From NCBI GenBank assembly GCA_044892525.1, contig CM097887.1:128876397-128940396 (forward strand): a DNA stretch of 64,000 nucleotides, read 5' to 3'. The notes under the pieces were generated by a model. It saw only the letters and a list, made by a program, of their open reading frames with translations, was not told where the DNA came from and did not search any database. Position 1 is the stretch's first letter; every line of letters begins with the position of its first letter. A program made the position numbers and the translations under genes. The DNA comes from Schmidtea polychroa. Its lineage: Eukaryota. This document shows, piece after piece, positions 1 through 36,737 of the stretch.

Positions 1-2720
1 AATTATTAACATCTAGGTATGACATTTGTGTTGATTCATCAGCTTCAACATGATGTTTGTTGATAAATGTCATTCCACCACGAATACCAGCTTCAAATAA
101 ACGGTAAAGCTCTGGATCTTGAATAAATTCTACTGGTTCAGGTAACTGTTTAATAGCTGATGCCCAACTTAATCCGGGTATGGAAACAAACGATAGAGCC
201 TCAAGTCCATCTTCGTCAAATGTTTTTTCTCTGAAAGCTTCAAAAACATCGGCCAACAGAAAAACATCCAACTTGAGATATACTAGCATGTAATCTAGCA
301 GTGTCTCACAGTTGTATTGTCGCCAGATTCGATTTGCATGTATATAATCTTCTTGACTAACTCCCTCCCAAATCGGTGGTAATTCTGTTATTGACTGTAA
401 AACATCCATTGATGTAGCCATATCATAAGGAAAAATGGTTTTACAAGTCATCATCTGTGATTCGAAAACATCTGAGGTCAGTGGAAGACGTGGCAAGTTT
501 TTTGATAAATTTGCCAAGCTGCTATTTAAAAATTGTAAAGAATCAATGAATCTAATTCTTCTGCCTTTCGATGTCGCTGTAAGTGTGAGAAACTTTTCTG
601 TTGATTGAGGAATAACAATTAAATTCCAATCTGGGAATTTTCCAATTGCATATTTTAATATATGATGAATGTCATATCCACGAAGATTATGAAATACAAC
701 AGGTAAAGACGGATTGATTCTTCTAGCCAAATTACAATCTTGACACGCTGCTCCGAGATATTGACCAGTAAAATGATCATGATCTCGAACAGGTATATTG
801 ATAATCTTTTTACAAAGGTAGCAATGAGTTTGAGTCGTGAATTCTTCCTGCTGTTCCCAAGAGAGTTCCATCATTTCCTTTGATCCATTAATTTTATACC
901 ACGGATAAACTATGTCTGTAGCTATATCATCCAATGCTTGTATGAACTGAATGATACAGTTTTTCCCAACAAATGTTTCATTTCGAATCGGACAACCTTG
1001 ATGAAGAAGCACAAATTCAGATGCAATCGGCTCATGTTTTTGGAAGTGCTTGTCATCTAGAGGTAATATTGATTCAAAGTCCGCATAGACAACAAACTGC
1101 TGTTTTATAGTTTTACTCCAGTCTTTAAATTCGATATATTTATTCTCTGGCATTGAGTATAGAGTCGTCCGCTCCACATTCTTCCTACAAAGACCTATAT
1201 GTCTTTCAAAAGCAGGACGTTTTTGAAACCCATGAAGACACGTATGACACCAATGTGATTGGATTCTGACTCCTTCTACTCTATCTCTGTAATTGAGCAG
1301 TCGATCGAGATTAGTTACAGCCAAAAAATGATAATTTAATTCTAAAATTTAGTTAATATTTTTAATGATTAAAAGAAATATTACCTTCTTCAATCAATAA
1401 GAGATATATCTGAGATCCCGTCGAAGTACTTCTATATACCAAGTCAACGAACCGATTCTTGAAAATATCATTAGTTTTTTGTTTAATTGGATCTTTATTA
1501 TATTTGAGAACATTGATCGCTAGATTTGGATTCATTGCTTCAAATTGGCAAATGTTAACCAACTTCATCGGAAACCATTCAAATTTCCATTTTAAGTCTT
1601 AAAAACAAAATTCAATGATTTATGACATTTATAAATATATATATTACCACTTAAGTTATATTTTGTTGTTCTTTCTCTATCCCGACGTATGTCATCATAA
1701 CGTAATACGGCCAGTATGCTATATAAAAAGCAGAATTGATCATTATTTTGAACATTAACTAAAGCCTGGCAGTTTTTCAGGTAATTTGGCGTTTTAATGT
1801 AACTTGAACCTAAGTAAATATCTTGATTTATATATATATATAATGTAAATAAACTTACCAGATACATGTATTATGTCTGATAATTTAGTTAAATCATAGT
1901 AACTTCTAGTATTTTATGAATTCTCCACCCACTACTTTGTTGAGTGTATTTCTCCAACTTTTCTTTTAATTTTTCAATTCCATCATTAATAAATGAAGAT
2001 GACATTGTAATTGCTTTATTCGACAAACACCATTTTTTAATTTCACCATCCTCTTTGATAAACTCTGCACAAAGTCCAAATTGGATTTTTACTGTCCCCA
2101 TTCGTTGAATATGATCTTCTATTTCTTTGATGAGACAATCTGGAACAACAATGTCAGGAGAATTAATTGCAGATACATCGCTTATCAATTCAACACGAGA
2201 ACCATTTAAGTCAGACTCCCGACGTGGACACAATTGTATGTTAGAGTCTCCATTTCCGTAAAATATTGACTTTCGTTTTGTGGTGCCAGAGTTTTGTCTA
2301 ACTATATTTATAATTAATATTAAACAACTTAAATAACATAACTTGTAACATATTCTTTAATCTGCTTAGGATCGTATGATGTATTCATTTTCGGTTGTAC
2401 TATAAAAAATTAATAATTGTTAATAGTAGAAAGAGTATTACTTTTAGTGATCATCCTGCTCTTCGTTTCTTCGAATCTTCTAAGATGGTGTCCGTGTTGT
2501 CGTACAAACATTAACCACCTACCTGGTGATATAATGAGACATTCCGGACATATGTAACCCGATAAGGTAGAGTCATTTATCTTGAAATATGATGATGTAA
2601 CTGATTTACAGTTCTCCACATCTTCATGACTTTCGGCAATACAAAATTTATATACACTGCATCCGTTCACTAAAAGAAAATAATCATTAATATTAGATAG
2701 AGAATAAAAAATTATTCACT
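1..2720 (-). CDS. polB: Second pPolB copy (mirror of 6392-9111), running off the left edge of the window
   Basis: Reverse complement of the right-arm gene with the same introns and the same frameshift. One visible non-synonymous difference (2655 vs 6457, V/L). The long exon from 1341 has no stop before the edge, so it is absent from the ORF track. Confidence 0.9.
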
Positions 2721-3456
2721 TATATAAGTTAAATTAAAAGTTTAAATGACAAACATTTGAAAAGTTACTGCTTATATATTACACATGATTAAATTCTGAC
2801 CAATCAAAATCAAGGAAGGGGTAGGAAAAATAAATATATTCTGACCAATCAAAATCAAGGAAGGGGTAGGAAAAATAAATGCATTACGTTACAGTATTTT
2901 AAAAGTTCAATATATTTTAAAACACATTTTGATGCTAAAGTTGACTTATTTAACATTTTCATAATAATTTAATAAAAATAATGTGATGAACCCACAAAGT
3001 AATATCATTTTTCATCAAATTGCAAAACAGTAATAACGTTTTCATAAAATTGTAACAAAATAATAACATATTTCAGATAAATTTTCAACAGTTGTAAAAT
3101 ATTTAAACAAATTGTAACAAGATTAGAAAATATTACAACAAAGTAGTAACATATTTCAGAAAATTTCAACAAAGTTGTAAAATATTTATCAAATTGTAAC
3201 TAAAATAATAAAAATATTGCAACAAAGTAATAAAATAATGATGTTAATTGGGACAAATCAATACATTATTTCGAAGACGGACAACAAATTAAAAAGAATA
3301 TTGTAATAAATTGTGAAGTCTTTCAGTAAATTACAACAAAGTAATAACATATTTCGGAAATATTTCACCAGATGTAAAATATTTAAGCAAAATGTTATAA
3401 GATTATAAAAATATTGCAACAAAGTAATAAAATAATACAACATTTTAAACTCTAGA

Positions 3457-4045
3457 TCAATCCATTTTATAGAAAATTAAATTTTATCTCTATAATATAT
3501 GAATAAATATACAAGGAAATTACGTTAACTGTATGAAAAATACAAATTTATCGTAAAAAACATGTGTGTATTACACACAACATACAAGACATAATTTTTA
3601 ATCAAGCTATTTTATAGAAAATTAAATTTTATCTATATAATATATGAATAAATATTCAAGGAAATTACGTTAACGTATAATAAATACAAATTTATCATAA
3701 AAACATGTGTGTATTACACAAAAAACAAGATACATAATTTCTAATCAATCCATTTTATAGAAAATTAAATTTTATCTATATATTATATGAATAAAATCCT
3801 AAGAAAATTACGTTAACTATATGAAAAATACAAATTTATCTTAAAAACATGTGTGTATTACACACAGAACAAGATACATAATTTCTAATCAATCCATTTT
3901 ATAGAAAATTAAATTTTATCTATATAATATATGAATAAAAATCCAAGAAAATTACGTTAACCGCGCGAAAAATACAAATTTATCGTAAAAACATGTGTGT
4001 ATTACACACAAAGCGACAAACTAAAATTGTAATTGAGCCATTTTG
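3457..4045. repeat. Tandem array of four ~144-bp units (left arm)
   Basis: Reverse complement of right-arm units 1, 5, 6 and 7. Confidence 0.93.
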
Positions 4046-4225
4046 TAGAGAATTAAATTCTGCCTATACATGGTTACACTTAAATCCCAATCGAACAAAG
4101 AGAAAAGAGAGAAAAAGAGAGAAAAAAAAACAGTAGAGTAGGGTATTGTGTGGACCCGGGTGAAACCTTTGCATAGATCTCTTCAAGACCTTACGAATGA
4201 TGTGAATAAAATATAATTAAATTTT

Positions 4226-4418
4226 AAAATACCGCAACGTAATATATTTAATAATTAAAATTTCAAAATACCGCAACGTAATATATTTTTAAAATACCGC
4301 AACGTAATATAAATTTTAAAATACCGCAACGTAATATAAATTTTAAAATACCGCAACGTAATATATTTTTAAAATACCGCAACGTAATATAAATTTAAAA
4401 ATACCGCAACGTAATATA
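4226..4418 (+). repeat. Seven copies of an invariant 21-mer AAAATACCGCAACGTAATATA (iteron-like)
   Basis: Core TACCGC starts at 4230, 4269, 4295, 4322, 4349, 4375 and 4402 (spacing 39, 26, 27, 27, 26, 27). Confidence 0.95.
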
Positions 4419-4449
4419 AATTTAAAAAAAAATTTAAAAAAAAAAAAAA

Positions 4450-4520
4450 TACCCCCCTCCCCCGGGGGTATGACGTCATATGTCTTTGTGACGTCATCGA
4501 TGACGTCATATGTCTTTGTT
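4450..4520. promoter_or_regulatory. GC hairpin plus three CRE/ATF sites (TGACGTCA), including a perfect 20-bp palindrome
   Basis: TACCCCC-N7-GGGGGTA at 4450-4470. TGACGTCA at 4471, 4489 and 4501. TGACGTCATCGATGACGTCA (4489-4508) is self-complementary. Direct repeat TGACGTCATATGTCTTTGT occurs twice. Confidence 0.75.
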
Positions 4521-4635
4521 CCCGGGTCCACGCAATACCCTACTCTACTGTTTTTTCTCTCTCTTTTTCTCTCTTTTCTCTTTGTTCGATTGGGATTTAA
4601 GTGTAACCATGTATAGGCAGAATTTAATTCTCTAC

Positions 4636-5655
4636 AAAATGGCTCAATTACAATTTTAGTTTGTCGCTTTGTGTGTAATACACACATGTTTTTACGATAA
4701 ATTTGTATTTTTCGCGCGGTTAACGTAATTTTCTTGGATTTTTATTCATATATTATATAGATAAAATTTAATTTTCTATAAAATGGCTCAATTACAATTT
4801 TAGTTTGTCGCTTTGTGTGTAATACACACATGTTTTTACGATAAATTTGTATTTTTCATACAGTTAACGTAATTTTCTTAGGATTTTATTCATATAATAT
4901 ATAGATAAAATTTAATTTTCTATAAAATGGATTGATTAGAAATTATGTATCTTGTTCTGTGTGTAATACACACATGTTTTTAAGATAAATTTGTATTTTT
5001 CATATAGTTAACGTAATTTTCTTAGGATTTTATTCATATAATATATAGATAAAATTTAATTTTCTATAAAATGGCTCAATTACAATTTTAGTTTGTCGCT
5101 TTGTGTGTAATACACACATGTTTTTACGATAAATTTGTATTTTTCATACAGTTAACGTAATTTTCTTAGGATTTTATTCATATAATATATAGATAAAATT
5201 TAATTTTCTATAAAATGGATTGATTAGAAATTATGTATCTTGTTCTGTGTGTAATACACACATGTTTTTAAGATAAATTTGTATTTTTCATATAGTTAAC
5301 GTAATTTTCTTAGGATTTTATTCATATAATATATAGATAAAATTTAATTTTCTATAAAATGGATTGATTAGAAATTATGTATCTTGTTTTTTGTGTAATA
5401 CACACATGTTTTTATGATAAATTTGTATTTATTATACGTTAACGTAATTTCCTTGAATATTTATTCATATATTATATAGATAAAATTTAATTTTCTATAA
5501 AATAGCTTGATTAAAAATTATGTCTTGTATGTTGTGTGTAATACACACATGTTTTTTACGATAAATTTGTATTTTTCATACAGTTAACGTAATTTCCTTG
5601 TATATTTATTCATATATTATAGAGATAAAATTTAATTTTCTATAAAATGGATTGA
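4636..5655. repeat. Tandem array of seven ~144-bp units (right arm)
   Basis: Unit starts (AAAATGG/AAAATAG) at 4636, 4780, 4924, 5068, 5212, 5356 and 5499. Units carry a TGTGT(GT)AATACACACA hairpin and a TAACGTAATT motif. Confidence 0.95.
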
Positions 5656-5681
5656 TCTAGAGTTTAAAATGTTGTATTATT

Positions 5682-6075
5682 TTATTACTTTGTTGCAATA
5701 TTTTTATAATCTTATAACATTTTGCTTAAATATTTTACATCTGGTGAAATATTTCCGAAATATGTTATTACTTTGTTGTAATTTACTGAAAGACTTCACA
5801 ATTTATTACAATATTCTTTTTAATTTGTTGTCCGTCTTCGAAATAATGTATTGATTTGTCCCAATTAACATCATTATTTTATTACTTTGTTGCAATATTT
5901 TTATTATTTTAGTTACAATTTGATAAATATTTTACAACTTTGTTGAAATTTTCTGAAATATGTTACTACTTTGTTGTAATATTTTCTAATCTTGTTACAA
6001 TTTGTTTAAATATTTTACAACTGTTGAAAATTTATCTGAAATATGTTATTATTTTGTTACAATTTTATGAAAACG
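5682..6075. repeat. Degenerate 83-84-bp tandem repeat (TTATTACTTTGTTGCAATATTTTT...), mirrored at ~3037-3430
   Basis: Unit starts at 5682, 5765, 5879, 5963 and 6046. Confidence 0.85.
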
Positions 6076-6231
6076 TTATAACTGTTTTGCAATTTGATGA
6101 AAAATGATATTACTTTGTGGGTTCATCACATTATTTTTATTAAATTATTATGAAAATGTTAAATAAGTCAACTTTAGCATCAAAATGTGTTTTAAAATAT
6201 ATTGAACTTTTAAAATACTGTAACGTAATGC

Positions 6232-6340
6232 ATTTATTTTTCCTACCCCTTCCTTGATTTTGATTGGTCAGAATATATTTATTTTTCCTACCCCTTCCTT
6301 GATTTTGATTGGTCAGAATTTAATCATGTGTAATATATAA
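6232..6340 (+). promoter_or_regulatory. Pol II-type promoter of pPolB: two copies of a 43-bp block with a reversed CCAAT box, then a TATA box (mirror copy at ~2772-2880, minus strand)
   Basis: ATTTATTTTTCCTACCCCTTCCTTGATTTTGATTGGTCAGAAT at 6232-6274 and 6277-6319 (ATTGG at 6263 and 6308). TATATAA at 6334-6340, about 50 nt upstream of the predicted split start codon. Confidence 0.6.
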
Positions 6341-6391
6341 GCAGTAACTTTTCAAATGTTTGTCATTTAAACTTTTAATTTAACTTATATA

Positions 6392-9300
6392 AGTGAATAA
6401 TTTTTTATTCTCTATCTAATATTAATGATTATTTTCTTTTAGTGAACGGATGCAGTTTATATAAATTTTGTATTGCCGAAAGTCATGAAGATGTGGAGAA
6501 CTGTAAATCAGTTACATCATCATATTTCAAGATAAATGACTCTACCTTATCGGGTTACATATGTCCGGAATGTCTCATTATATCACCAGGTAGGTGGTTA
6601 ATGTTTGTACGACAACACGGACACCATCTTAGAAGATTCGAAGAAACGAAGAGCAGGATGATCACTAAAAGTAATACTCTTTCTACTATTAACAATTATT
6701 AATTTTTTATAGTACAACCGAAAATGAATACATCATACGATCCTAAGCAGATTAAAGAATATGTTACAAGTTATGTTATTTAAGTTGTTTAATATTAATT
6801 ATAAATATAGTTAGACAAAACTCTGGCACCACAAAACGAAAGTCAATATTTTACGGAAATGGAGACTCTAACATACAATTGTGTCCACGTCGGGAGTCTG
6901 ACTTAAATGGTTCTCGTGTTGAATTGATAAGCGATGTATCTGCAATTAATTCTCCTGACATTGTTGTTCCAGATTGTCTCATCAAAGAAATAGAAGATCA
7001 TATTCAACGAATGGGGACAGTAAAAATCCAATTTGGACTTTGTGCAGAGTTTATCAAAGAGGATGGTGAAATTAAAAAATGGTGTTTGTCGAATAAAGCA
7101 ATTACAATGTCATCTTCATTTATTAATGATGGAATTGAAAAATTAAAAGAAAAGTTGGAGAAATACACTCAACAAAGTAGTGGGTGGAGAATTCATAAAA
7201 TACTAGAAGTTACTATGATTTAACTAAATTATCAGACATAATACATGTATCTGGTAAGTTTATTTACATTATATATATATATAAATCAAGATATTTACTT
7301 AGGTTCAAGTTACATTAAAACGCCAAATTACCTGAAAAACTGCCAGGCTTTAGTTAATGTTCAAAATAATGATCAATTCTGCTTTTTATATAGCATACTG
7401 GCCGTATTACGTTATGATGACATACGTCGGGATAGAGAAAGAACAACAAAATATAACTTAAGTGGTAATATATATATTTATAAATGTCATAAATCATTGA
7501 ATTTTGTTTTTAAGACTTAAAATGGAAATTTGAATGGTTTCCGATGAAGTTGGTTAACATTTGCCAATTTGAAGCAATGAATCCAAATCTAGCGATCAAT
7601 GTTCTCAAATATAATAAAGATCCAATTAAACAAAAAACTAATGATATTTTCAAGAATCGGTTCGTTGACTTGGTATATAGAAGTACTTCGACGGGATCTC
7701 AGATATATCTCTTATTGATTGAAGAAGGTAATATTTCTTTTAATCATTAAAAATATTAACTAAATTTTAGAATTAAATTATCATTTTTTGGCTGTAACTA
7801 ATCTCGATCGACTGCTCAATTACAGAGATAGAGTAGAAGGAGTCAGAATCCAATCACATTGGTGTCATACGTGTCTTCATGGGTTTCAAAAACGTCCTGC
7901 TTTTGAAAGACATATAGGTCTTTGTAGGAAGAATGTGGAGCGGACGACTCTATACTCAATGCCAGAGAATAAATATATCGAATTTAAAGACTGGAGTAAA
8001 ACTATAAAACAGCAGTTTGTTGTCTATGCGGACTTTGAATCAATATTACCTCTAGATGACAAGCACTTCCAAAAACATGAGCCGATTGCATCTGAATTTG
8101 TGCTTCTTCATCAAGGTTGTCCGATTCGAAATGAAACATTTGTTGGGAAAAACTGTATCATTCAGTTCATACAAGCATTGGATGATATAGCTACAGACAT
8201 AGTTTATCCGTGGTATAAAATTAATGGATCAAAGGAAATGATGGAACTCTCTTGGGAACAGCAGGAAGAATTCACGACTCAAACTCATTGCTACCTTTGT
8301 AAAAAGATTATCAATATACCTGTTCGAGATCATGATCATTTTACTGGTCAATATCTCGGAGCAGCGTGTCAAGATTGTAATTTGGCTAGAAGAATCAATC
8401 CGTCTTTACCTGTTGTATTTCATAATCTTCGTGGATATGACATTCATCATATATTAAAATATGCAATTGGAAAATTCCCAGATTGGAATTTAATTGTTAT
8501 TCCTCAATCAACAGAAAAGTTTCTCACACTTACAGCGACATCGAAAGGCAGAAGAATTAGATTCATTGATTCTTTACAATTTTTAAATAGCAGCTTGGCA
8601 AATTTATCAAAAAACTTGCCACGTCTTCCACTGACCTCAGATGTTTTCGAATCACAGATGATGACTTGTAAAACCATTTTTCCTTATGATATGGCTACAT
8701 CAATGGATGTTTTACAGTCAATAACAGAATTACCACCGATTTGGGAGGGAGTTAGTCAAGAAGATTATATACATGCAAATCGAATCTGGCGACAATACAA
8801 CTGTGAGACACTGCTAGATTACATGCTAGTATATCTCAAGTTGGATGTTTTTCTGTTGGCCGATGTTTTTGAAGCTTTCAGAGAAAAAACATTTGACGAA
8901 GATGGACTTGAGGCTCTATCGTTTGTTTCCATACCCGGATTAAGTTGGGCATCAGCTATTAAACAGTTACCTGAACCAGTAGAATTTATTCAAGATCCAG
9001 AGCTTTACCGTTTATTTGAAGCTGGTATTCGTGGTGGAATGACATTTATCAACAAACATCATGTTGAAGCTGATGAATCAACACAAATGTCATACCTAGA
9101 TGTTAATAATTTATATGGATGGGCGCTGTCGCAAAAACTTCCTGTTGGTGAATTTAGATGGCTAAATGATCAGACTGAAATGAATGGTATTGTTGAAAGA
9201 TGTGCAAATGGGGATGAGTTTGATGGAGATCGTGGATATGTTCTAGAGGTTGACATCGTCATTCCTGATAGTATACAAGATAAACTAGATGATTTACCTA

Positions 9301-10382
9301 TAGCTCCTGAGCTTTGTTATCCGCCTGGTAGTAAAGTTGAAAAGCTGTTGTTAACTCATGAGCCTAAGAAAAACTATGTAGTTAATGGTAGAGTTTTGAC
9401 AGAGTGGTTGAGTTACGGCGCAAAAGTCACAAAAGTTAATCGTGCTGTAGAATTCAAGCAAGTGGCTATTTTCAAAGGCTATATTGATTACAATACCAAA
9501 ATGAGAGCAGCTAGTACAGATTCGTTTCAGCGAGATTATTATAAGTTAAAGAACAACAGTTTATACGGTAAAACTGTGGAAAACTTGAAGAAACGTATAA
9601 ATTTGAGATTATGCAGCAAAAACAAAAGATTGATAACTTATTGTAGTAATCCTATGTTTCGTCGTAGCATCAAGATTGCGGATGATCTCATTGCTGTTAT
9701 ACTCAATAAGGAAATTGTGTGTTTAGATAGACCAATGTATATTGGACAAACCGTACTTGATTTATCCAAACTTCGCATGTACCAGTTTCAATATAAAGAA
9801 CTACAGAGTTATAGAGAAGAATTCAATTGTCAAATTAATATCGTAGCCGGTGACACAGATTCCTTCTTTTTAGAGTGTAAAAATGTAGATTTACGCTTAC
9901 AACTATATCCAAAAATGATTGCCGATGGGCTCCTAGATACTTCAAATTATCCAGTGACTGATCCATTGTTCTCAGATAAAATTTGTTCGGTAATCGGGAA
10001 ATTCAAGGATGAGAATAAAGGAAATCAATATAAAGAATGGGTGTTTCTTCGACCCAAGTGCTACTCACTCCAAGGCGATAAAAACACTCTAAAAGCCAAA
10101 GGAATAAGACTTACAAACTCTAATCTTACACATGAAGCCTATAAAAAAGTGTATACTGATGGTGGAACAGTGAGCATCCCACAAAAAAGAATAGGAAGTG
10201 TCAATCATCAGTTGTATACTTTCATGACAGAAAAACGAGCTCTCCAATGTTTGGACGATAAAAGGTATTGGTACAATTGTAATGAAAGCTATGCCTACGG
10301 TCACTATAAGATTCGTCAAATGCATATCGCAACTGCTCCGTCTACAAATGAATGCAATCGAAACAAGCACTTTAACAATTAA
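6392..10382 (+). CDS. polB: Protein-primed family B DNA polymerase (Polinton/Maverick-type pPolB), spliced gene of ~1,240 codons with one frameshift; last exon 7771-10382 intact
   Basis: 864-aa ORF motifs: Exo I VYADFES, HNLRGYD, FIDSLQFL, Exo III YLKLDVFLLADVFE, GIRGG, Pol A YLDVNNLYG, Pol B KLKNNSLYGK, Pol C GDTDS, FLRPKCY, KAKG. It also has an endonuclease VII-like insert (CYLC..VRDHDHFTGQYLGAACQDCN). Upstream ORF pieces carry N-terminal motifs typical of this family (SGW..IL, GSSYIKTP..NVQNNDQFCF, FP....QFE..NP..INV, YHFLAVTNLDRL) and join in frame via GT-AG introns 6393-6442, 6671-6712, 6770-6810, 7254-7302, 7465-7514 and 7728-7770. Confidence 0.9.
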
Positions 10383-11049: not shown

Positions 11050-11430
11050 TTGGTCTATATTCGATCTTGATATTCCATGACCTTGAAAGTGCGCTGGAGT
11101 CCTTACTATTCACTACTAATATTACACTTGTAAATGTTCTCCTACTAGGTATTAAAAATCTGGATTTAATTTTTCAATAAAAATTTTAAAATTAGCTGAA
11201 TCCATAAACGATAACGGAAGTCCATCTTATAAAATCTGACTATTTAATAGAAATTCAGCAGAAAAATTAATGTCAGCACTTTTGTTCATATCTTCACCAT
11301 GCTCATTTGCCATATGGTAAAGCATACCATTTGTTTGACCATTCATGGAAATAGTATGTTCGCAAAGCTTGCATTTGGTCATATTATTACCAATTTCATC
11401 AAAAAAAAACCCACACTAAACTTCTTTTTT
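11050..11430 (-). pseudogene. hAT transposase N-terminal remnant with BED zinc finger
   Basis: Manual translation: VW.FFDEIGNNMTKCKLCEHTISMNGQTNGMLYHMANEH (W, Cx2C, Hx4H), followed by DGLPLSF; interrupted by stops. Confidence 0.65.
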
Positions 11431-13819
11431 TTCTCTTTTTAGACCCAACTAAAATTTGAAATGAATCTTGCATAGAAACTGGTATATGAGTTATTGATGA
11501 ATCTAAAATAATATCTGTAGTGGTATTTTGAGGTAACAACTAGGAATTATTAGGAAAAAATGCGGTTTTTTCGGGTTGATTTATTGATGTGTCTTTCAAG
11601 AGTCAACACACATCGAGTCAAACACATTGCGAGGTGAATACGGCGTTGATGATGTAGGTATTGTAAACGGTAGTGGTTCTTTGTTAATACCATTTGTAAC
11701 TTTTTACGCGGTTTATCTTTAATTGTAAGGGAATAAATATTTTATTATTAATAAGAAATTATTAATAAAAAATTATTAAATAAATTATTAAATCCCTAGT
11801 TTTTATATTATTATTATTATTTATTTATTGATACTTAACTCTTTCGTGGTTTTTGCTAAAAATTTAAATTTAATTTAAAATAAAATTTATTTGTTTTAAA
11901 ATCAAAAATAATTTTCAAAATATGGGGGCTAAATATTAAAATTAATTTTAATATAATAATTATAAATTAAATTTTTTTAAAATATCCGAATAATATTGTT
12001 AAATAAATTGCTAATTTTAAAACTTTTAATTATTTTCCCCCCAAATTTGTGTATTTTTTAAAATATTTTTCTAATTTTTCCTCCAAATTTGTGTGTAAAC
12101 CCATTTTTAAAATTGAAATAAATATTAATAACTAATAGATAATAATTATTATACTTATAGAATGTTATTCATATAAACTCGTATTATGAGTAATATTTTA
12201 TCATCGAAATTATTATTTTTATTAATANNNNNNNNNNNNNNNNNNNNNNNNNNNNNNNNNNNNNNNNNNNNNNNNNNNNNNNNNNNNNNNNNNNNNNNNN
12301 NNNNNNNNNNNNNNNNNNNNNNNNNNNNNNNNNNNNNNNNNNNNNNNNNNNNNNNNNNNNNNNNNNNNNNNNNNNNNNNNNNNNNNNNNNNNNNNNNNNN
12401 NNNNNNNNNNNNNNNNNNNNNNNNNNNNNNNNNNNNNTATTATTAATATTTAAAATTTCCTACGAACCAATTTAGGAGAAATTTGAGTTGAATGGCAGGA
12501 AGTTTCTAATTTCCGTCTAGAGACTAATTGGAACAAAATTATCTAACGTCTCTAAATGATATAAGTTTAACTATACTGACATAAACTCCTATTTAACTTC
12601 AACAAATAATGATCAAATAAACAAAATAAATATTCATATAAATCCCTTGGTGTTAATATTAAAAAGTTCATTTCATTTTCNNNNNNNNNNNNNNNNNNNN
12701 NNNNNNNNNNNNNNNNNNNNNNNNNNNNNNNNNNNNNNNNNNNNNNNNNNNNNNNNNNNNNNNNNNNNNNNNNNNNNNNNNNNNNNNNNNNNNNNNNNNN
12801 NNNNNNNNNNNNNNNNNNNNNTGAACTTTATAATGACTTTATAAATATTGAAATTTTATTTTAGTTTTCAAACGTTTTCCCTAAGAAATATAATGATGAA
12901 CAAATAATTTGTCATGACTTTTGAATAAGATGTTTTATTTACTTTATAATTCGCAATATTTATTTTTCTGTGTATACGATGAAAAATATATTTGAAAAAT
13001 ATTATTTATTTTTAAATAATAATAATTAAATATTACTAAAATTTTAATAAATGAAAAAATGAAAAAAAAATATAAATAAAGTTTTTATCACATAATAGTT
13101 TTGAAATATTACATATTCTTTACCAATTTACTTTAGAAAAATAGTTGGAATAATTCACAGTTACCTCTGTTCCTTTTTATTATATTAGCTGCCTTTTGAA
13201 AAGATCGGTTCAAATTTCTATTCGTCTGAAATAAATTTACATATTTTCAAAATGAAAAATGCTGGAATTAAATAATTGCCGATTTAATAATAATATTTTA
13301 TTATCACTTTATAGCTGACTCCGTGTATTCAAAACTATTCGTACGAAGACTGTATATAATATACTAATTTATTATTGATATCACAATTTTACAAGATCTG
13401 ATTTTATTAAATTGATAGACCACAAATAGGGCCTATAAGAGCCACATTGAGACCCATTTCAGGTAATATATGTGGCCCCCTATATAGTAATATGAGTTTT
13501 AGAAATTTTAAGTTTTTGTTGATCAATAATTCATTAATACAAAATAAAAAAAAATCCGATTCAAAATATCAAAAAACAAAAACTAAATGTAATAAATAAA
13601 AATGAAAAAAGCCTTTTAGAGTCCTTAGAGGTTTAACTTAAACGAACTTATTTATTCAGAATAATCGAAATCGAAATCAAGTCGAAAGTAAAAATACCCC
13701 AAAGATAGGTGACTCTCAAAGTTGTATTCGATTTTATTATAGGAAATATTTTTTTTGCCCTACATAAAAGTGTAAAATAATATTTTAATCGCTTTGTATA
13801 GTTCTGATCTTATTACTAG

Positions 13820-20006: not shown

Positions 20007-20051
20007 TAACTGATTTAGAAGTTCTTTTCGATATTCCCAAAGCTTACAAAT

Positions 20052-20595
20052 TATGTTGGAGGCATTCAAGGAGTTCTTTCTTTGTACGCTTCAGGTCGTA
20101 CATTGGGTGTCGTGATCCTGATCACCTGGGTGGGTGATCACTTTAGTGATCCTGTATTTGTAGAATTAATTTAGCTGGTAGAGACTTAACTGATTATCTA
20201 ATGAAAACATTGAGAGACAGAGGATACAGTTTTACAACTACTGCCGAAAGAGAAATTTTTCGAGATACTAAAGAAAATTTGTATTACATTGTTCTTGATT
20301 TTTAAGAAAGATACAAACTGCTGTTTTTTCATCGTTACTTGAATAGAGTTATGAACTACCAGATGATCAAGTTATTACCATTGGATATGAAAGATTCAGA
20401 TGTCCAGAAGCTTTATTCCAGGAATCATTCTTAAGAAAGGAAACTGTTGGTATTCATGATGAAATGCAACGCAGATATCCGCAAAGATTTATGTAGCAAT
20501 ACTGTCTTATCAAGTAGTTCGACAATGGTTCTTGAACGAATGCAAAAACAAATATCACCTTTGGTTCCATCAGCATCAATGAGAATTAAACAATT
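20052..20595 (+). pseudogene. act: Actin pseudogene fragment (central region) with deletions and stops, no visible introns
   Basis: IQGVLSLYASGRT; [28 protein letters not shown]; [24 protein letters not shown]. Confidence 0.93.
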
Positions 20596-23164
20596 ATCAA
20601 TTATACTACAATAACCTTTTTTCTCAGAATTTCAAATCAAATTATTATTAGAATATAACAAGTTCCTGTTGATAAAGAAACTTAAGTTACCGAAAAAGAT
20701 TTTAAAAATAATTTGTACAGTAATTAAATTAATTAATTAATATTCTCACGTGCAGGGTGAAACATGTCAGTCTCTATTAATTTCCTATTGATGTAAATTG
20801 AAGTTGAAGCTGGGAAATAAGTAAAGCATTAGAAATGACTAATTATTTTACAAAATAGGATATTAAATCTTTCTTAATAAACTTAGACAGATTAAATAAC
20901 TCCTAAAAGTAATAAAATTCATTTTACTGCAAAGTTTTGCGATAGTTTCATTCTCTTCAATAACTTCAGGTTTCCCTATCATTTAATTCGACACTTTGAT
21001 CTAGAATTATCCTTGATATCCTAGCAATAATAATGCCCTGGGGTAATCAGTTTTCACCCAAGTCATGATAGCGATTTCCGTGTTAGAGTCGGGCAATCAG
21101 CTTACTTTTTTAAAGTTAATGGTTTGAAAGAGTTCCACGAGTTGGCAATGAATCGACATGAGATTATTAAAACAAATCCCAAAGGATGAATTAATAAATT
21201 TTACTTTAAAAGAAATTCATTATTACTGGAAATGAACTGGTTGGAATTAGAATTTCATTGAGAAATTATTTTTTATGATTGGGAAATTTATTGTATATAA
21301 CATCATTTTCATTTAAAAATAGTTTCTAAAGATAAAATTTAGCCGCGAAAATGTTGCACTTCCTTCACAGTTTTCTATCTAGTTGCTAGGAATCCACTGT
21401 CAAATTTATAATTACAAATGATAATTATCAGCGAAATACAATATTACCTCACTTTGCGTTGATTCGGTTAGCGTAGCATTATTTTTTGACACTCAATTTT
21501 CAATTTGCGTTGTCTTTTATTTGTAATTTTGTATTATTTTTATTTTTTTTGCATCAATTAAGAATGTAAGTGAATGGAATTACGAATCAGATAATTCAGT
21601 AATTGGCAATGATTGTTTACCGATTAAAACAAACCCCGAGTACATTTCAAATATGAGCAATATTGAGGAATTGATTCAAAATCTTACTTTTCCAAAATAA
21701 GATGAGATGAGCAGATTGATGATGATGAACTGGTTAAATTTAAATTTTCTCTTAGAGAATTTCGAAAAATCATGCTTTCAAATATAGTCCTTTTCAAGAC
21801 CTTCAATTTTGCTGACTACGACATTTGTAAATTTTCATTGGAAGATTATCAAAACTTTGGTAAAGAAGATTTTTTGAGTTATGATTTATCATGATGCAAG
21901 GGTCTGAGAATTTTAAAGATTTTAGCTTGGAATATGATGGAAAATGTCGAAATCAATCTTTTTACTGAAGATGACCTAATATCACATTTGGAAGGCGTTT
22001 AAAATCACATTTGAAATTTCTCAAAATTTGTGAGCTTCCTAACTGACTTTGGAAAAAAATGTTGATACCTTGAAGAAAAGTTTGAATTGATTATAATAAA
22101 AGGAACTGGAGACAGAACAAAATCAATCGACATAGCGATTAATAGCCAATATGGACGAAAGTTATATGGAAGGTGGAATGTCCTAACCATCGAATCAATC
22201 TACTTCTAATGTTAAATTTAAAAGGATAAATTTTAATAACAAAACTCTGATGTCGTTACAAGTTTTGAGCTTGGTCGTGACATTTCCGATTTTAGATACA
22301 TAACACTAAGGTTTTTCCTTGCCGAAGTCCAGTTGGCCGAGCGATCTGAACAAATTAAAATCTTACGAACATAATACAATTTCAACATTTTAGGTTTAAA
22401 TATGAAGCAATTTTAATGCAATAGATCGTGTAAACATGACAGAAGTTCGGCTTATTTATTATCGGTTTAAAGCTTCAAATATTAGTAAAAGATATACAGA
22501 TACTTCACTAATTATAAAAATTATACAATCTTATATCGAGAAACGTGACTGAAGTTCGGCACATCAGTGTCGATCACAAGCTCTGAATAAGAGCCATAGT
22601 AGATAAAAATGAATTTAACAAAAACTAGCACAGTAATCGATAAATAGATAGTTTTAACAACTAAATTGAATAATTGATGATAATCGATATCTGGCAGATA
22701 GCCAAAATAGAGGGATTAGATAACCCAACATACTATCAGATTTCTTACAAGTAGATGAATCACTTTGGGAAAAAAACTTGTGACAGCGTAAATTGCCGAA
22801 TTTATTTTCATATTTTTACCTTATTACAGATTTTGCAGCCGGCAAAGCTTGCAAGATTTGCTTGTAAGTTGTAAAAGCAAGGTGGAAGTAGAAGATATAA
22901 CCAAACCAACGCTATAGTGTATATAGTTTATAATGTAAAGTTATATGAACTGTCAATTAGCATGCCAAAACAAGACATTTTAATTATTAGTTTTTTTTGA
23001 GTTTTATGATCTTCAGTTAAATGAATAAAACTGTAATTATGGATGTGTCAACGCTGTTCTAGAGTAAAAATTTAAGTAATTTAATTTTTTATTTCCCATT
23101 ATTTTAATATATGTAGAAATGCAAATGTTTGCATGAGTCTCGTTCCTAGTCTGCTGTCTTGGAA

Positions 23165-23760: not shown

Positions 23761-24780
23761 TCGCCAAAAATTCATATACAAAAAAATCTAGAGACCTTAA
23801 AATACTTTAGCTTTATTATTGAGAGTTGGATTTTGTATTAAAAAAATTATATAGAACTTAAAAATAACTTGGCTTTTTTAACGAGGGTCTGATTTCATAT
23901 AGGAAAAAATATCTAATACCTAAGAGCTCCTCTGGCTATAGTGTGAATTTGAAAAATTATACTATAGCCCTCTTGAGGAGTGGCTTTTTAGTGACAGTCG
24001 AATTTTGTATACAAAACATTTCTTGGACAAAAGATCCAATTAATCCCTGGAACAATGGGAAATTCCATTAACCTCTGGAGCAGTGGCTTTTTAGTGACAG
24101 TTGGATTTTGTGTACAAAAATATTGGGTTTTTTATTGCTGCTTTTGAAATTGAATTTTGACAATTGGTGATAAACTAATTTCATAGCACAATTTCGTTAG
24201 TGATTTTATAAATTGGTTTAACGGTTTCTCGGGGAAATAGGGCAAACATAATTAAAAAATTTTTAAACATGATAATAATTTGTAGTTAAATATAAATCAA
24301 AATAGATCAGAACTTTAATGAAATTGTTATGCCTGTTTAACTGATTAAGTTAGAAAATTTTGTCGATGATGATACGCAGAGTTTTAGTCTGAGATGGCGA
24401 GCAACGGATATCCATTTCCAAGTCGATTGAATTTGTGATAAATAATTTATTTTTGTGTATAATAAAATTTAAATGAATTATGGAGGTCTAATTTCCTAAC
24501 AATTCTTAAATTGTCAGTTGAGTAGTAAACGACAGCAGGAACCATGAAATAAATCGGACACATATCTTCAGAATGTTAACTAATTATAGTTCACCAGAGT
24601 AAACTCCTTTTTTTACTAAACTTCACCCATTCGACATATCAACGTTGTTCATTCAACGGGTGTTGAGTGATAGAAAACATTGTATTCTGGTTACGCTGGA
24701 AATAGCTAAAAAGGGATATAATTTTGTTAACCTGAAACTCAAAAGTATTCATTGAATTAAAATAGTGATATAGTGATAGT

Positions 24781-26093
24781 AGTAGGATGTGTCACATCCA
24801 GCACATGTCACATCCAGCACACAAAGACCATGACTCATTCAAGGTCATTGATGACTCATCAAGGTCATTGAAACAAAGACCATGACTCATTCAAGGTCAT
24901 TGATGACTCATCAAGGTCATTGAAACAAAGACCACGACTCAGTCAAGGTAATTGGATGACTCATCAAGGTCATATTTTAAGGTCAAGGTTATATTTTTAA
25001 AGTCATATTTTTCAAGGTGGCGGCTATATAGTTTAATTAAAGATTGCGTGTGTGTATTTTCTTTAAATTAATATTTTGAGAACGTTTGCTCGGATTGAAT
25101 TGCTCAAGGGGTCATTTTAAATGTCATTCAAAGGGGAATCCGTGCGCGCAAATTTTGTCTTAATTTTNNNNNNNNNNNNNNNNNNNNNNNNNNNNNNNNN
25201 NNNNNNNNNNNNNNNNNNNNNNNNNNNNNNNNNNNNNNNNNNNNNNNNNNNNNNNNNNNNNNNNNNNNNNNNNNNNNNNNNNNNNNNNNNNNNNNNNATT
25301 TTATTTTCGATGTTTCATTATTATTTACTTAAATATTATAAAACTTAATAACTGCATCAATTCACGATTTTCAATATTTTGATGATTATTTTCAGGAACA
25401 TTTTCATAATTTTCAAGGTTTTCATGATATTCAACATTTTCATCATTTTTAATATTTTCATGATTTCCAATATTTTTTTTTTATCATCATTGTTTTCTTC
25501 AAAATTCTTATATTATTATTATCATTTTCAAATTATTTTCAAAGTTCTTCTTCTTATTATTATTATTATTATTATTCTTTTATTNNNNNNNNNNNNNNNN
25601 NNNNNNNNNNNNNNNNNNNNNNNNNNNNNNNNNNNNNNNNNNNNNNNNNNNNNNNNNNNNNNNNNNNNNNNNNNNNNNNNNNNNNNNNNNNNNNNNNNNN
25701 NNNNNNNNNNNNNNNNNNNNNNNNNNNNNNNNNNNNNNNNNNNNNNNNNNNNNNNNNNNNNNNNNNNTTAAAACAAATTAAGACAAAATTTGCGCGCACG
25801 GATTCCCCTTTGAATGACATTTAAAATGACCCCTTGATCAATTCAATCCAAGCAAAGGTACTCTCAAAATATTAATTTTAAAAAAATACACACACGCAAT
25901 CTTTAATTAAACTATATAGCCGCCATCTAGAAAAATATGACCTTAACCTAAAAATATGACCTTGACGAGTCATCCAATGACCTTTAATGAGTCATGGTCT
26001 TTGCTTCAGTGACCTTGATGCGTCATCCAATGACCTTGAATAAGTCATGGTCTTTGTGTGCTGGATGTGAAACTGGAGTTGACACATCCTACT
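24781..26093. mobile_element. Non-autonomous element with ~390-bp TIRs beginning AGTAGG (Polinton/Maverick-like termini)
   Basis: 24781-25167 is the imperfect reverse complement of ~25775-26093. Termini are AGTAGGATGTGTCA and TGACACATCCTACT. Subterminal ~52-bp repeats are rich in TGACTCA and AAGGTCA. The interior is mostly N; no clean TSD. Confidence 0.75.
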
Positions 26094-27551: not shown

Positions 27552-30238
27552 CAGGGTTGCCAGATTTTGAAAACATCATGTCGGGAGTAACGAAAAAAAA
27601 TATTTCGACTGGTCTTTTTTTAGTTTATTTTTTTATACAGAAATTAAAAAGATACATAATTCAAATGCTGTTGAACAAAAAAAATTAAATCAATAAAATA
27701 AAACAAACAAATAAAAAATAAAAAAATTAACAAAAAAAAAACAAAAATAACAAAAATAAATAAAAAAATAAAATAAAATAACAAACATAAAAATAAAACT
27801 AAAAATAAATAAATTAGTGATAATACCAAAATATTTTATAATATTTTTCAGATCTGGCAGCGTTTTTTATAATTAGTTGAGCATTTTCTGTTTGGAGAAA
27901 TTCAATAAATTCTTTACAGGACATTTTAAAATTTTCTTTTACCATTAATTCTGCTTCAAGGTTTTGCAACAACAATTTATTTCGTTCCTTGCGCCAAGCG
28001 GTTGTCATCAAGCTGAATATCCTTTCGGAAGTTGCATTGGTATGAGGAATAGAAAAAATTATGCATACTATTTTATATAAATTTGCTGAGTTTTCATGAA
28101 CTTTAAAGAATTTTACTCATTTTTCATCAGGTAATAATGTGTTCAGTTTTTCTCTTTCTGTATTTATAAAATAATTTAATTTATGAATTTCTTCGAATAA
28201 AATATCTTTATCAATATTGCAAATATTAAATTTTTCAATGATTGCTACTATTTTATTATATTGAATTGATTCTTTTAAACTTAGTGGTTTTAAGATTTCG
28301 AATTTATTATTTTCGAAATTAAACCATTTTTGCAAATAAGTTATTGCCACATTAAAAAATGAATTTGCTTCTATTTCAAATCTTTTTATGGCAGAATCAT
28401 TATCACATTTTTGTAATATTGTTCTTGCGATTGAGCCGTAAAATTGTTGCTCTTTTCTGTTGATTAACGATTGTCTGACTTCATCCATTATATCATATAT
28501 ATCTATTATAAGAACGTTGTTGGTTTGTAACTTTTTTAAAGCGGGCTGAAATATTGAAAATGTGTTCATAATAAATCCTAGATAAGCTATAGAAAGCTCA
28601 TCTTCAAAAAATAATCGTATTCCAACAGATATTGAATTTTGAAACAAAAAATATGATTTAATTGGTTCAAAATCTTTCAATAACCTTTCACCAGCAGGTA
28701 AAAGGCTTAGCCATCGACTTGGAACGTGGCGTAAGATTTCCGACCATTCTACTTCGGCCCATTCAAAAAAATCTTTTAATGTAGGGGTTTTTTTGTTGAC
28801 GAGCTAAACTCGTTATAAATTTTTATGACTATTGAATCAATATCAATTTTCAGTTAGGTTGTGGCTTTTTTCGCAGTGTTGTGCAGAATATGACTATTAC
28901 ATCCAATCGGAATAATTTTAGAATTAGCTTTTTTAAATTCCGTAAAAACACTCTGGTTCTTCCGAAATTCACAGCTGCATTATCCGCACAAAGAGATGAT
29001 AAATTTTAAATATTTAAACTTTTGCATTCCAATTTATTCTTTATATAATCTGCTGTCAACTGAACGTTCACTATCTAGTGAATAAAAAGACAGCAGAACA
29101 TTTTGTATACCTTTTTCTTTGGTAAAATATCGCAAGACTATAGGAAATGTTTTAACATTTCCTTTATTCGAAGCATCGGTACTCACAGAAAATGGAATAT
29201 CACCTTTCAACTGTTCTAAAATTCTTCTTTTCGATTCCGGGGTCAAAACATTACAAACAATTTTGGATATTTTGGTTCTTCCACAGCTGTACTTTCTTGC
29301 TATATTTGAATCAGAAAGCAAACCTGAAAATATTGAACCAGCACAATCACTAGATAAAAAGCTGTGTGAATGCATGATGGTATGATAGCAAAAAGCCACT
29401 TCTGCTGATGTACCAAGTCCTTCGTCTTTGCTGCTTTTTTTACAAAATAACGTAGTCAATTTTTTTGAATTTGCTGATGCAGCTATCTTGGATCGATGAC
29501 CAACCGTTTTAAAGTGTCTTTTAATATCATTTCCACCACCATGTGATATAGAAATTTTAAAATTATTACACACTGTACAAGTAATGTGATGATCACCACA
29601 TTGTCGAATCCAGTCATATGACTTCGTCCATTTCGGATTAAATTTTACTGTATACTTCACTTTTTTTTATATATCCTCTGTTTTCGTCAGAATCAATGCA
29701 TTCCAAATTCGAATCAGACATTTTTAGGCTATAATTAGTACGTCTTATTAAAAAACGAAAACCATTACAAATTTCAATATTAATATATTGAGTTTTTATA
29801 GCTTATACTTACTTTATTCTTTATATATTATATTTATATGTGTTAAATATTACGTAGACGCACCGAGATTTATTTTAATTTTATTCAATATAAATTATAT
29901 TTAGCTTCCTATCCTAATTGTATGATTGTATCACTTAATTTATTTAATATTTTGTTCCAAACGACCATTTTAATTAATTGAGATTCTTAGAATACACAAA
30001 TAAACAATAAGTAAATTTAGACATCAGAACAATACTTATAGGCAAAACACAATGCGCAAAATGTCAAAAAAATTCACTATTTTCACCCAATTGGCATTAC
30101 TTCAAAATGTTAAGTGATGACAACTGCTGAAAAAACTTAATTTACAAATCGGGAGTTTTTGGCATGTATATCGGCAGTCGGGAAATATACTTTCATAACG
30201 GGAGACTCCCGACGAAATCGGGAGGTCTGGCAACCCTG
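27552..30238 (-). mobile_element. hAT DNA transposon, 2,687 bp, with TIRs and 8-bp TSD
   Basis: TIRs CAGGGTTGCCAGA (27552-27564) and TCTGGCAACCCTG (30226-30238). TSD ATTCCAAT at 27544-27551 and 30239-30246. Confidence 0.95.
27814..29660 (-). pseudogene. Disrupted hAT transposase
   Basis: Zn finger (CTVC..SHGG..DIKRH..T.GH), first catalytic Asp in FSVSTDASNKG, RWLSLLP motif just before 28680, and SIPHTNATSERIFS near 28040. Split into ORFs 29034..29660, 28117..28680 and 27814..28011. Confidence 0.9.
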
Positions 30239-34205: not shown

Positions 34206-36737
34206 ATAATCAAAATCGTGAAATTTCATTTTTAGTGCACCATTTTTGAATTTACACATCTTTTCAAACAACTATACATCTTTCTCATTCATTCATATTC
34301 CTGTATTGAAATATTTACAAACCAACATGTTTTAGTTACAAAAAGAGTTATCAATAAATTGAGTAAGGGTAGGAAATTATTTAGAATCAATGAATAACAC
34401 ACATACCTTAGTATAATAGATGTTAATACATATTACAATAAACCCACTCACATGCGTATACATAAAACACGCACATATTAACATTATTTCATACGCACGC
34501 ACAAATTAATATTATTCAATACAGAAAATTCATAGAGGTTAAGCACATATCAACCAATCAAAATCATGCATTGATTTTGCATTGTTTTGCATATGAGTAA
34601 TATCAAAAAAATTAAATTCATTATATCATTAAATAATAAATTCTTTTACAGTATTTTAAACTATATTCAATCAAATTATAAAAATATTGCAACACAGTTG
34701 AGAAATGAACAAACTTAAATAATAATATATTTATTAATAATGTTGGGTTATTGAGTTGGTGACAATATTTGTAAATTCAAACTTTTACTATGGCTCCAAA
34801 GCGTGTTTATTAATTCACAATTCAACACTCTCGAACACAATTAAGCTTTATTTATGATCCACACGGAATAGTGCAAACTTCAATTACAACCAATTAACTA
34901 TAAACCAATTTATCACACAGAGCTTATTTCGTCACTACGTGAAGAATAACTCTTTCTGTAACCACAACAAAAATCCCTAGGCGTCAACTACTCAATCGAT
35001 TGTTCTAATTGCTTTGACCACACAATTTATTTACTCCACTTTTACTTTATATTCAATTTTATAAAGGATTTTTGTCGCTTCTCATTTTTACTCTGTTTTG
35101 ATTCTCCTTTTCAACTCTTTCGTCTCTAATTTTACTCTACTTTTTGTCTCTAATATCGTTTTGTTTTGTTCTCAATTTCGTTCTGTTTTCGTTCTACTTT
35201 TCGTTCTAATTTTGTTCTAAATCCGTTCTAAATTTGTTTTAAATTTGTTCTAATTTTGTTCTGATTTCTCGTCCACCAGTTTTCCTTTATATAGTTGTTT
35301 TGTTTATGGCACTGACGGCAGATTTTGTTTTTCTATTTCCATTTTCTTCTGCGTTCCCCTATATCAGCCTTATCTCTGACAGATGTCGAGATATTTTTCC
35401 TTTTTCCCTTTTTTGTTTGACCGCCTTCTTCCAGCAATTACGTTATCACTGGCAGGCTGTCGAGATAATAATATTGTTGTTTTCCTTTTCTCCTTATTTC
35501 AAAATTCCTTTTCCTTTTTGTACTAATTAATTAGTACTGACCTTGGCTTTTATTTTCATGTTTGTTTCCTTTTATTTCCTTTATTTTTCTCATTTTTAAT
35601 TTCTTTTTATTTCCGTTTTCTTTTCTACGTTCCCACAGATCGTCCCGTTTGTCATGACGATCTTCCCCCCAGGTAATTTTATTTATTTATTTATAAATTG
35701 TTTATTTAGGTATCCTCAACAATAAGATATATTATTTTCAATAATAATTTATTTTTAAGTTCATAAAACCGAGAGAAATTTTATTTTATTTAATAATATT
35801 TACTGTGACAAACAGAAATTGGAATTGATATAAAGATTTAATACACTGATATAACTTTTCATATACCTCAAATAAAAACACTATAATAAAAATATTAATA
35901 GTTTTGCAAACAGTGCTAACACATATAGTTAACTAGTCATTGGTACGTTATTACTTTGTTGCAATATTTTTATAATTTGTTACAATTTGATTAAATATTT
36001 TACAACTTTGTTGAAAATTTACCGAAATATGTTACTACATTGTTGCAATATTTTTATAATCTTGTTACAACTTGCTTAAATATTTTATAACTTTGTTGAA
36101 ATTTTCCGAAATATGTTATTACTTTGTTGTAATTTAATGAAAAGTTTCATAATTTTGTGGTAATTTAGTGTAAAATATTTATTCAATTATTGCCATTCAC
36201 CGAAATAATTTTATTAATTTTATAACCATTAACTGAAATAATTTATTATTTTGCAATAATTAATGATTGAATATAGTTTAAAATACTGTAAAAGAATTCA
36301 TTATTTAATGATATAATGAATTTAATTTTTTTGATATTACTCATATGCAATAACAATGCAAAATCAATGCATGATTTTGATTGGTTGATATGTGCTTAAC
36401 CTCTATGAATTTTCTGTATTGAATAATATTAATTTGTGCGTGCGTATGAAATAATGTTAATATGTGCGTGTTTTAATATATGTATACGCATGTGAGTGGG
36501 TTTATTGTAATATGTATTAACATATATTACACTAAGGTATGTGTGTTGCTTATTGATTCTAAATAATTTCCTACCCTTACTCGATTTATTGATAACTATT
36601 TTTGTAACTAAAACATGTTGGTTTGTAAATATTTCAATACAGGAATATGAATGAATGGGAAAGATGTATAGTTGTTTAAAAAGATGTGTAAATTCAAAAA
36701 TGGTGCACTAAAAATGAAATTTCACGGTTTTAATTAT
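34206..36737. mobile_element. Foldback element with ~470-bp inverted arms, related to the non-coding core of the pPolB palindrome
   Basis: 34206-34673 is the imperfect reverse complement of ~36265-36737. It shares GATTTTGATTGGT, TTTCCTACCC, TTAAAATACTGTAA and the 84-bp repeat (35948, 36032, 36116) with 5682-6319. Confidence 0.85.
34741..35670 (-). mobile_element. Probable LTR with adjacent polypurine tract, inside the foldback spacer
   Basis: Minus strand: GGGGGGAAGA (35670-35661), then T(C)GTCATGAC, TATATAAAGG (~35293), an 11-12-bp minisatellite (35160-35265), AATAAA (~34810), ending CCCAACA at 34741. No TSD found. Confidence 0.4.

Follow-up and report, generated by a model that had tools for sequence, protein, structure and literature searches.

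In Schmidtea polychroa, a palindrome that spans at least 9.1 kb has a 360-base spacer (4161..4520) as its loop. What is this spacer, and how did it come to lie between two mirror-image genes? An earlier interpretation, referred to here as the sequence-only reading, had proposed that this segment is the origin, resolution site, or bidirectional enhancer of the element around it. The segment lies within a 64,000-nucleotide stretch of DNA, the whole of which we call the window. The explanation that we favor, with about even confidence, is that the spacer is a stranded Polinton-type end, which had come to lie inside the terminal region of another Polinton, folded back at the hexamer CCCGGG, and then amplified.

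Palindrome arms and divergent pPolB genes

The spacer proved to be the center of a pPolB palindrome, as the sequence-only reading had claimed. The left arm (1..4160, minus strand) runs past the start of the window, and the right arm can be compared with it over 4521..9111 (plus strand), with the pPolB gene extending to 10382. When aligned, these segments differ by four substitutions, a single-base indel, and an indel of 432 bp that corresponds to three additional 144-bp units on the right arm. The arms are 99.9% identical and are composed of high-copy repeats. The window contains 12 N runs, and the outer ends of the palindrome fall outside the visible sequence.

Outward from the center, each arm consists of an inner segment of 29-40 bp, an AG-rich run, an array of 144-bp units, a set of 84-bp repeats, a CCAAT duplication, and pPolB. 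The 144-bp tandem array on the right (4621..5656, plus strand) holds 7.2 units and its mirror (3451-4059) holds 4.2, a difference pointing to unequal exchange after duplication. The core AACGTAAT is repeated in each of the seven right-hand units. Units 2 and 3 of the right array are also exactly repeated as units 4 and 5, and the left array is three units shorter. Of the five small differences between the arms, three cluster no more than 40 bp from the spacer (P about 9e-6); we set this clustering aside because two of the three fall in an A/AG run that varies among public contigs.

Next to pPolB is its upstream region (6193..6319, plus strand; mirror 2793-2919), which contains a 21-mer in degenerate form (6209-6229) and a duplicated 45-bp segment with an inverted CCAAT. 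DNA resembling this region is present in the related locus L022. Motifs like bZIP sites lie 1.5-1.9 kb from both pPolB starts. The flanks have about 20% GC, and the window is AT-rich and carries other transposon-like open reading frames (ORFs).

The Polinton-type pPolB gene on the right arm (6442..10382, plus strand) encodes a protein-primed PolB (PF03175, E 8.6e-30) with an EndoVII-like insert, whose own match is weak and below the cut-off. Both copies of the gene read outward and are broken at the same frame position (near 7221-7223; mirror 1889-1891), where the left arm shows no difference. Intact homologues, which are 1,100-1,300 aa long, align in blocks from 6442 to about 10320. The window protein was aligned with 23 of the 120 homologues listed, and the EndoVII Cys/His/Asp/Asn residues are invariant in all 24 aligned pPolBs; no pPolB relatives were confirmed in viral_contigs. 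The 5' part of the gene (6393-7770) is also interrupted by short GT-AG intron-like gaps, the first of which may split the start codon.

The alignment led to 37 related loci among 136 pattern matches. In three of them, L008, L009, and L011, pPolB occupies one side and most of the long ORFs beyond its 3' end read on the other strand, which would place the DNA upstream of pPolB on the terminal side. In vertebrate Mavericks, both modules mostly point inward (PMC8097293). We infer that the center of the palindrome is the terminal side of the element, and that the palindrome is therefore arranged head-to-head. A Pfam scan of ten ORFs from related loci recovered two rve integrases (L009 and L011), together with a weak A32-type ATPase and a TBP (L009). 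When 48 ORFs from six related loci were compared with the window, only six matched, all of them pPolB or pPolB fragments; integrase, ATPase, protease, and capsid genes found no match in the part of the window that was visible to this comparison (N runs and left arm unseen). This copy therefore appears to be non-autonomous.

Two of the related loci have further features. The Polinton-type metagenome locus L009 carries a short TBP (11336-11779; PF00352, E 4.9e-18) and, between accessory ORFs of the plus strand, two neighboring hairpins of 74 and 90 bp (13242-13405). In L008, an ORF upstream of pPolB (61-735) has a Cys/His-rich start that by eye is like the pPolB N-terminus.

Spacer motifs and their likely sources

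Each of the motifs that had been noticed in the spacer was recovered. The 21-mer AAAATACCGCAACGTAATATA occurs in seven identical copies (starts at 4226, 4265, 4291, 4318, 4345, 4371, and 4398), and five of the six gaps between starts are 26-27 bp (39, 26, 27, 27, 26, and 27). With up to three mismatches allowed, the 21-base pattern has nine matches in the window versus a maximum of zero in 100 shuffles. The array of seven 21-mers (4207..4420, plus strand) is followed by a segment (4421..4470, plus strand) with an A/T tract (about 4421-4450) and a G/C hairpin (4450-4470; 7-bp stem, 7-nt loop, -5.5 kcal/mol). Beyond these lie three TGACGTCA sites, or CREs (4471, 4489, and 4501), and a perfect 20-bp palindrome (4489-4508). 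No other TGACGTCA sites exist in the 64 kb; shuffled sequences hold 0.44 on average, and three anywhere in the window was reached by 1 of 100. Two of the three CREs are copies within a 30-bp direct repeat, and the 20-bp palindrome is made of two self-complementary CREs flanking TCGA. Therefore, the CREs and the palindrome are not independent signals.

Public sequencing runs bear on the source of these modules. Part of 3900-6500 is present in 20 of the 24 listed runs, which come from seven studies, and no RNA runs with this region were listed. Contigs of four runs were placed on 4040-4760, a stretch that ends short of pPolB: 18,237 from X1, 2,580 from X3, 94 from X8, and 81 from X9. X1, X3, and X9 are DNA-like, and X8 is guessed to be an RNA run.

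The 21-mer array begins with what appears to be a copy of the promoter-proximal module of pPolB. The 44-bp module at 4207-4250 is 84% identical over its 44 bp to 6193-6236 and to its mirror at 2876-2919, and the copy at 6193-6236 sits just upstream of the CCAAT duplication. A separate alignment of upstream regions brought nothing further to this match. Public contigs that match the first unit continue before 4207 (34 in X1, 13 in X3, and 1 in X9), and contigs that pass 4207, 4249, or 4370 run into sequence like 6170-6260 (loose ends in X1, X3, and X9). Other copies therefore hold a closer version of the module in a promoter setting. From these likenesses, we read the 21-mer array as a tandem amplification of the pPolB promoter module. 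We take the AACGTAAT core to resemble a bZIP site, and both the CRE and AACGTAAT motifs presumably match host bZIP-type factors. As host bZIP-type sites, they would probably have been inherited from the ends and promoters of Polintons.

A 46-bp piece (4161..4206, plus strand) precedes the array. In X8 it is also found between other flanks, with loose ends before 4164 in one contig and behind 4201 in five.

The CRE block on the other side of the spacer (4470..4520, minus strand) looks like part of an element end that faces into the spacer. Followed from 4544 along the minus strand, it consists of AGTAGG, 19 nt, and then ACAAAGAC-ATGACGTCA repeats. The block holds two ACAAAGAC-ATGAC units, and its three TGACGTCA sites lie at nt 37-44, 49-56, and 67-74 from 4544. 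The pattern ACAAAGAC-N1,2-ATGAC has five sites in the window versus none in 100 shuffles; two are in the spacer, and the other three are at the ends of an inverted-repeat element outside the palindrome (24778..26093, no strand assigned). This sister element has AGTAG(TAG)G ends and ACAAAGAC-ATGAC repeats with AP-1-type sites, with TGACTCA in place of TGACGTCA. The distance from AGTAGG to the start of the ACAAAGAC-ATGAC repeats is 25 nt in the spacer and 40 nt in the sister element, which has a 16-bp duplication there. Its arms are about 390 bp long with 52-bp repeats of TGACTCA plus AAGGTCA, and no target-site duplication was found for this element, which has N runs inside.

The candidate end motifs are AGTAGG at 4137/4544, AGTAGAGTAG at 4132/4549, and, in the sister element, AGTAGTAG at 24778. 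The published Polinton/Maverick end motifs are (AGT)2 and (AG)3 (PMC8097293), to which AGTAGG is near but not identical. None of the 37 related loci, whose upstream flanks are short, has a AACGTAAT array or CRE cluster. Likewise, no full-length element with an AGTAGG plus CRE end was seen, and the related contigs are without such an end.

Several broader searches covered the same region. Observed/expected CpG is 2.4 in 4132-4549 compared to 0.8-1.1 in the arms and the remainder of the window, an excess that comes largely from repeated motifs. An Rfam search of 4000-6500 gave no matches at E values up to 0.1, and thus no known structured RNA. A sigma-70 scan gave one site where 1.9 were expected, under a bacterial-type model that is irrelevant for a eukaryote. 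The exact 21-mer had no matches in viral_contigs or in metagenome_contigs, and the exact 24-bp end described below had none in viral_contigs.

The window also contains a second palindrome with its terminal side at the center. This foldback element (34206-36737) has 480-bp arms (96%) that carry a similar AAAATACTGTAA motif and an outward-pointing inverted CCAAT, and its center holds the same 84-bp repeats as the arms of the giant palindrome.

Spacer junctions and alternative explanations

The spacer is bordered by a 24-bp inner inverted repeat. The left copy (4137..4160, plus strand), which reads AGTAGG...CCCGGG, would be a fold-back copy of the element end, and the right copy (4521..4544, minus strand) would carry the native Polinton-type end at 4544 or, alternatively, a longer AG-type start at 4549. 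The self-complementary hexamer CCCGGG closes the left copy (4155..4160) and recurs at 4521-4526; it has only three sites in the window (4155, 4461, and 4521), two of which are at the spacer junctions.

In the public runs, the spacer is a high-copy sequence, and the order of its modules is conserved in variants, among them shortened spacers with joints from 4294 to 4500, 4309 to 4505, and 4260 to 4513. The X9 contigs have depths of 20.2 (4131-4261), 46.6 (4521-4698, unbroken), 61.4 (CRE), and 201.9 (one 144-bp unit). Summed contig depth does not equal copy number, and in this one run 20.2, 46.6, and 201.9 fit the 1, 2, and 11.4 copies of the spacer, arm, and 144-bp unit in the window. Depth in the CRE bins exceeds that of the left spacer in X1, X3, and X9 (61 versus 20 in X9), and not clearly so in X8. 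The bin at 4440-4464, which covers the A tract and most of the hairpin, has zero depth in all four runs. We attribute this to skipped repeats and do not read it as absence; these two features are therefore documented by the window only.

Public contigs break or leave for other flanks at 4544/4137. Past 4544, three X8 contigs run into dissimilar flanks (agreement 0.61), and X1 has two joints at 4137 (strand not given). Another X8 contig has a dissimilar flank before 4149, and therefore not every copy sits in a palindrome. A single low-depth X8 contig has other sequence before 4164 but keeps GGGT in register. Among the matches listed (32 of about 21,000), no contig has at least 31 letters on both sides of a junction; the best has 30, which is the number of arm-side letters in the X9 contig across the left junction. 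The CRE block extends as far as 4544 in other contexts too, which makes the right junction look native, whereas the left junction looks derived. A 6-bp direct target duplication is absent at 4137-4544, where the flanks are inverted copies of each other. This junction pattern fits a template switch at CCCGGG.

Under the explanation that we favor, an element end would first have been placed in the terminal, promoter-side non-coding region of a Polinton bearing pPolB. From its tip inward, this end would have comprised AGTAGG, the CRE block, the G/C hairpin, a T tract, and the promoter-derived 21-mer array. A copying strand about 385 nt into the end may then have switched back onto CCCGGG at nt 19-24 of the same end, whereupon the end, 144-bp array, promoter, and pPolB would have been copied again in inverted orientation. 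The outcome would be the palindrome described above, with divergent pPolB copies that have a frame break in common, and its center would subsequently have been amplified to high copy. Mobilization would have been in trans, and both this and the order of events are what we infer. To our knowledge, nearly all that is known about Polinton replication comes from sequence. A head-to-head palindrome at high copy, with a captured end as its loop, would represent a fossil of Polinton template switching, and the spacer region would gather likely cis parts of Polintons (end motif, CRE block, and promoter module) in one short fragment. If the center is only a passenger, the locus is a well-explained repeat rearrangement.

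The reverse order of events is possible but unlikely. Here, 4137-4544 would have begun as a free 408-bp non-autonomous copy-back Polinton derivative with 24-bp TIRs, which inserted into a Polinton terminal region and whose TIRs later primed the palindrome at a break. The inverted ends that start with AGTAGG, the panhandle fold of 4137-4544 (z -7.0), the unlike flank before 4149 in one X8 contig, and the one arm mismatch contained in the 24 bp agree with this order. In addition, PMC10622511 describes yeast inverted duplications primed by short inverted repeats near a break. However, the X9 left-junction contig starts 30 letters into the arm, and the unbroken contig at 4521-4698 has 2.3 times its depth, as would be expected if most copies are flanked by two arms. 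A free copy with a target duplication was not seen.

We consider it quite improbable that selection instead maintains the spacer as the working center of a palindromic replicon, in the role of bidirectional enhancer, origin, or resolution site, where the EndoVII-like domain of pPolB might cut. High copy number, conserved module order, the bZIP-like motifs 1.5-1.9 kb from both pPolB starts, and the invariant EndoVII residues speak for such a role. Against it, both pPolB copies have the frame break, and the spacer is asymmetric and has deletion variants. Nuclease inserts are common in Polinton pPolBs and are ascribed to homing endonucleases in PMC11071308, and inserts are likewise described as common in bioRxiv 10.1101/2023.08.22.554363. 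The EndoVII-like insert is therefore no argument for resolution, and this part of the sequence-only reading is not supported.

The idea of an origin held up in part, as parts of origin and promoter type are indeed present, and invariant direct repeats do lie beside an AT-rich tract, which carries little weight in flanks of about 20% GC. Iteron origins, however, have a cognate Rep initiator gene and in-phase spacing, and a 26-27 bp period corresponds to about 2.5 helical turns, unlike in-phase iterons. No Rep initiator gene was found among the neighboring ORFs, which are all pPolB parts, and the 21-mer appears to be a promoter module copy. The single visible replication gene encodes a protein-primed polymerase, a type that initiates at DNA ends, and an iteron-type internal origin is therefore unsupported. 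Polinton ends are expected to be protein-priming origins according to PMC8097293. The embedded end is not a free terminus and therefore, unless excised, would not be expected to prime replication. Most likely, the spacer looks regulatory because Polinton-type ends carry promoter-type motifs, and nothing shows it acting as a central origin. The spacer may serve as an enhancer for the divergent pPolB genes.

Slightly more doubtful still is a scheme in which an integrase cuts the two inward AGTAGG ends and releases a 408-bp copy-back mini-replicon. This Polinton clade would propagate head-to-head palindromic derivatives whose center is kept by selection, with the CREs and the 21-mer array driving both arms. 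Such a mini-replicon would have two priming ends and amplified factor sites, and it would be a DNA counterpart of copy-back defective interfering genomes.

It is very unlikely that the 360 bp inserted, with a 6-bp target duplication of CCCGGG, at the exact center of an older perfect palindrome. The hexamer on both sides of the spacer does read as a direct repeat, a near-perfect palindrome remains once one hexamer and the spacer are taken out, self-complementary hexamers make up only 3% of window hexamers, and Polinton duplications are six bases long (PMC8097293). However, the CRE block is continuous with CCCGGG...CCTACT elsewhere (X8 contigs 4470-4544 and 4478-4544) and in the sister layout, and the right junction looks native. 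The 360 bp also has no terminal inverted repeats of its own, and an empty-center joint is absent among the matches listed.

Least probable is a false palindrome made by misjoining ordinary high-copy repeats during assembly or amplification: the near-identical repetitive arms, the 12 N runs, and the absence of a contig spanning the whole compared stretch among the matches listed would allow it, but the arms differ by three array units and four substitutions, and the independent run X9 has the left junction in a contig of spacer-like depth (20.2 versus 19.4). Two other candidates were rejected: a circle or tandem junction of one Polinton, as the sequence next to the end is not the reverse complement of that end, and a solo LTR, as the segment begins with TG and the final CA is absent.

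Relation to known systems and other window features

As described in PMC8097293 and bioRxiv 10.1101/2023.08.22.554363, Polinton/Maverick TIRs share with the spacer end an AG start, several hundred subterminal bases, and a linked pPolB. Moreover, relatives carry an rve integrase and an A32-type ATPase. Unlike those TIRs, the end in the window faces inward at a palindrome center, and its flanks are inverted with no 6-bp duplication; unlike an autonomous Polinton, the window contains no integrase, ATPase, or capsid gene. Maverick expansion in planarians is reported in bioRxiv 10.64898/2025.12.11.693146. Our literature search, which was made by title and start of abstract and whose coverage leaves out most subscription papers, did not find palindromic or head-to-head Polintons.

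The closest parallels to the palindrome come from two other settings. The invertron plasmids pAL2-1 and kalilo in mtDNA are likewise protein-primed elements with inverted ends and multi-kb inverted target copies, which PMC1864894 ascribes to panhandle intermediates. The window case differs in that it is nuclear-type, has a 408-bp center that is high-copy, and has a duplicated target that is itself a Polinton. Foldback inversions via short inverted repeats, as presented in PMC10622511, also produce large palindromes in which a short repeat lies inside and the loop is not palindromic. In contrast to the dispersed mobile family here, they are one-off rearrangements or programmed events. Tetrahymena rDNA, named in the references of PMC10622511, may belong here too.

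The sequence-only reading had also pointed to the ATF/CRE sites of adenovirus ITRs, which agrees with PMC2794291: TGACGT sites lie within about 100 nt of the end of a protein-primed element, and the CREs in the spacer are at nt 37-74 from 4544. The end sequence in the window is different, however, and is embedded instead of free, and no adenoviral genes were seen there. The Polinton TIR remnants at eri-6/7 of C. elegans (bioRxiv 10.1101/2024.01.15.575659) resemble the present case in their nested TIR pieces and in putative factor sites tied to inversions, but they belong to a single host locus with direct repeats and not to an amplified palindrome.

Other features of the window lie outside the palindrome center. 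A short frame at 11227-11415 (minus strand) resembles a BED zinc finger in the spacing of its Cys-x2-Cys and His residues, and broken ORFs at 27814-29666 (minus), 46188-46880 (plus), and 47571-47903 (minus) are like hAT, piggyBac, and gypsy remnants; all four are candidates identified by eye, as is a set of fragments at 20019-20614 (plus) like a decayed actin pseudogene. Finally, 50482-50916 and 51134-51567 form a 435-bp direct duplicate (99.8% identical) between N runs, which is possibly an assembly duplication.
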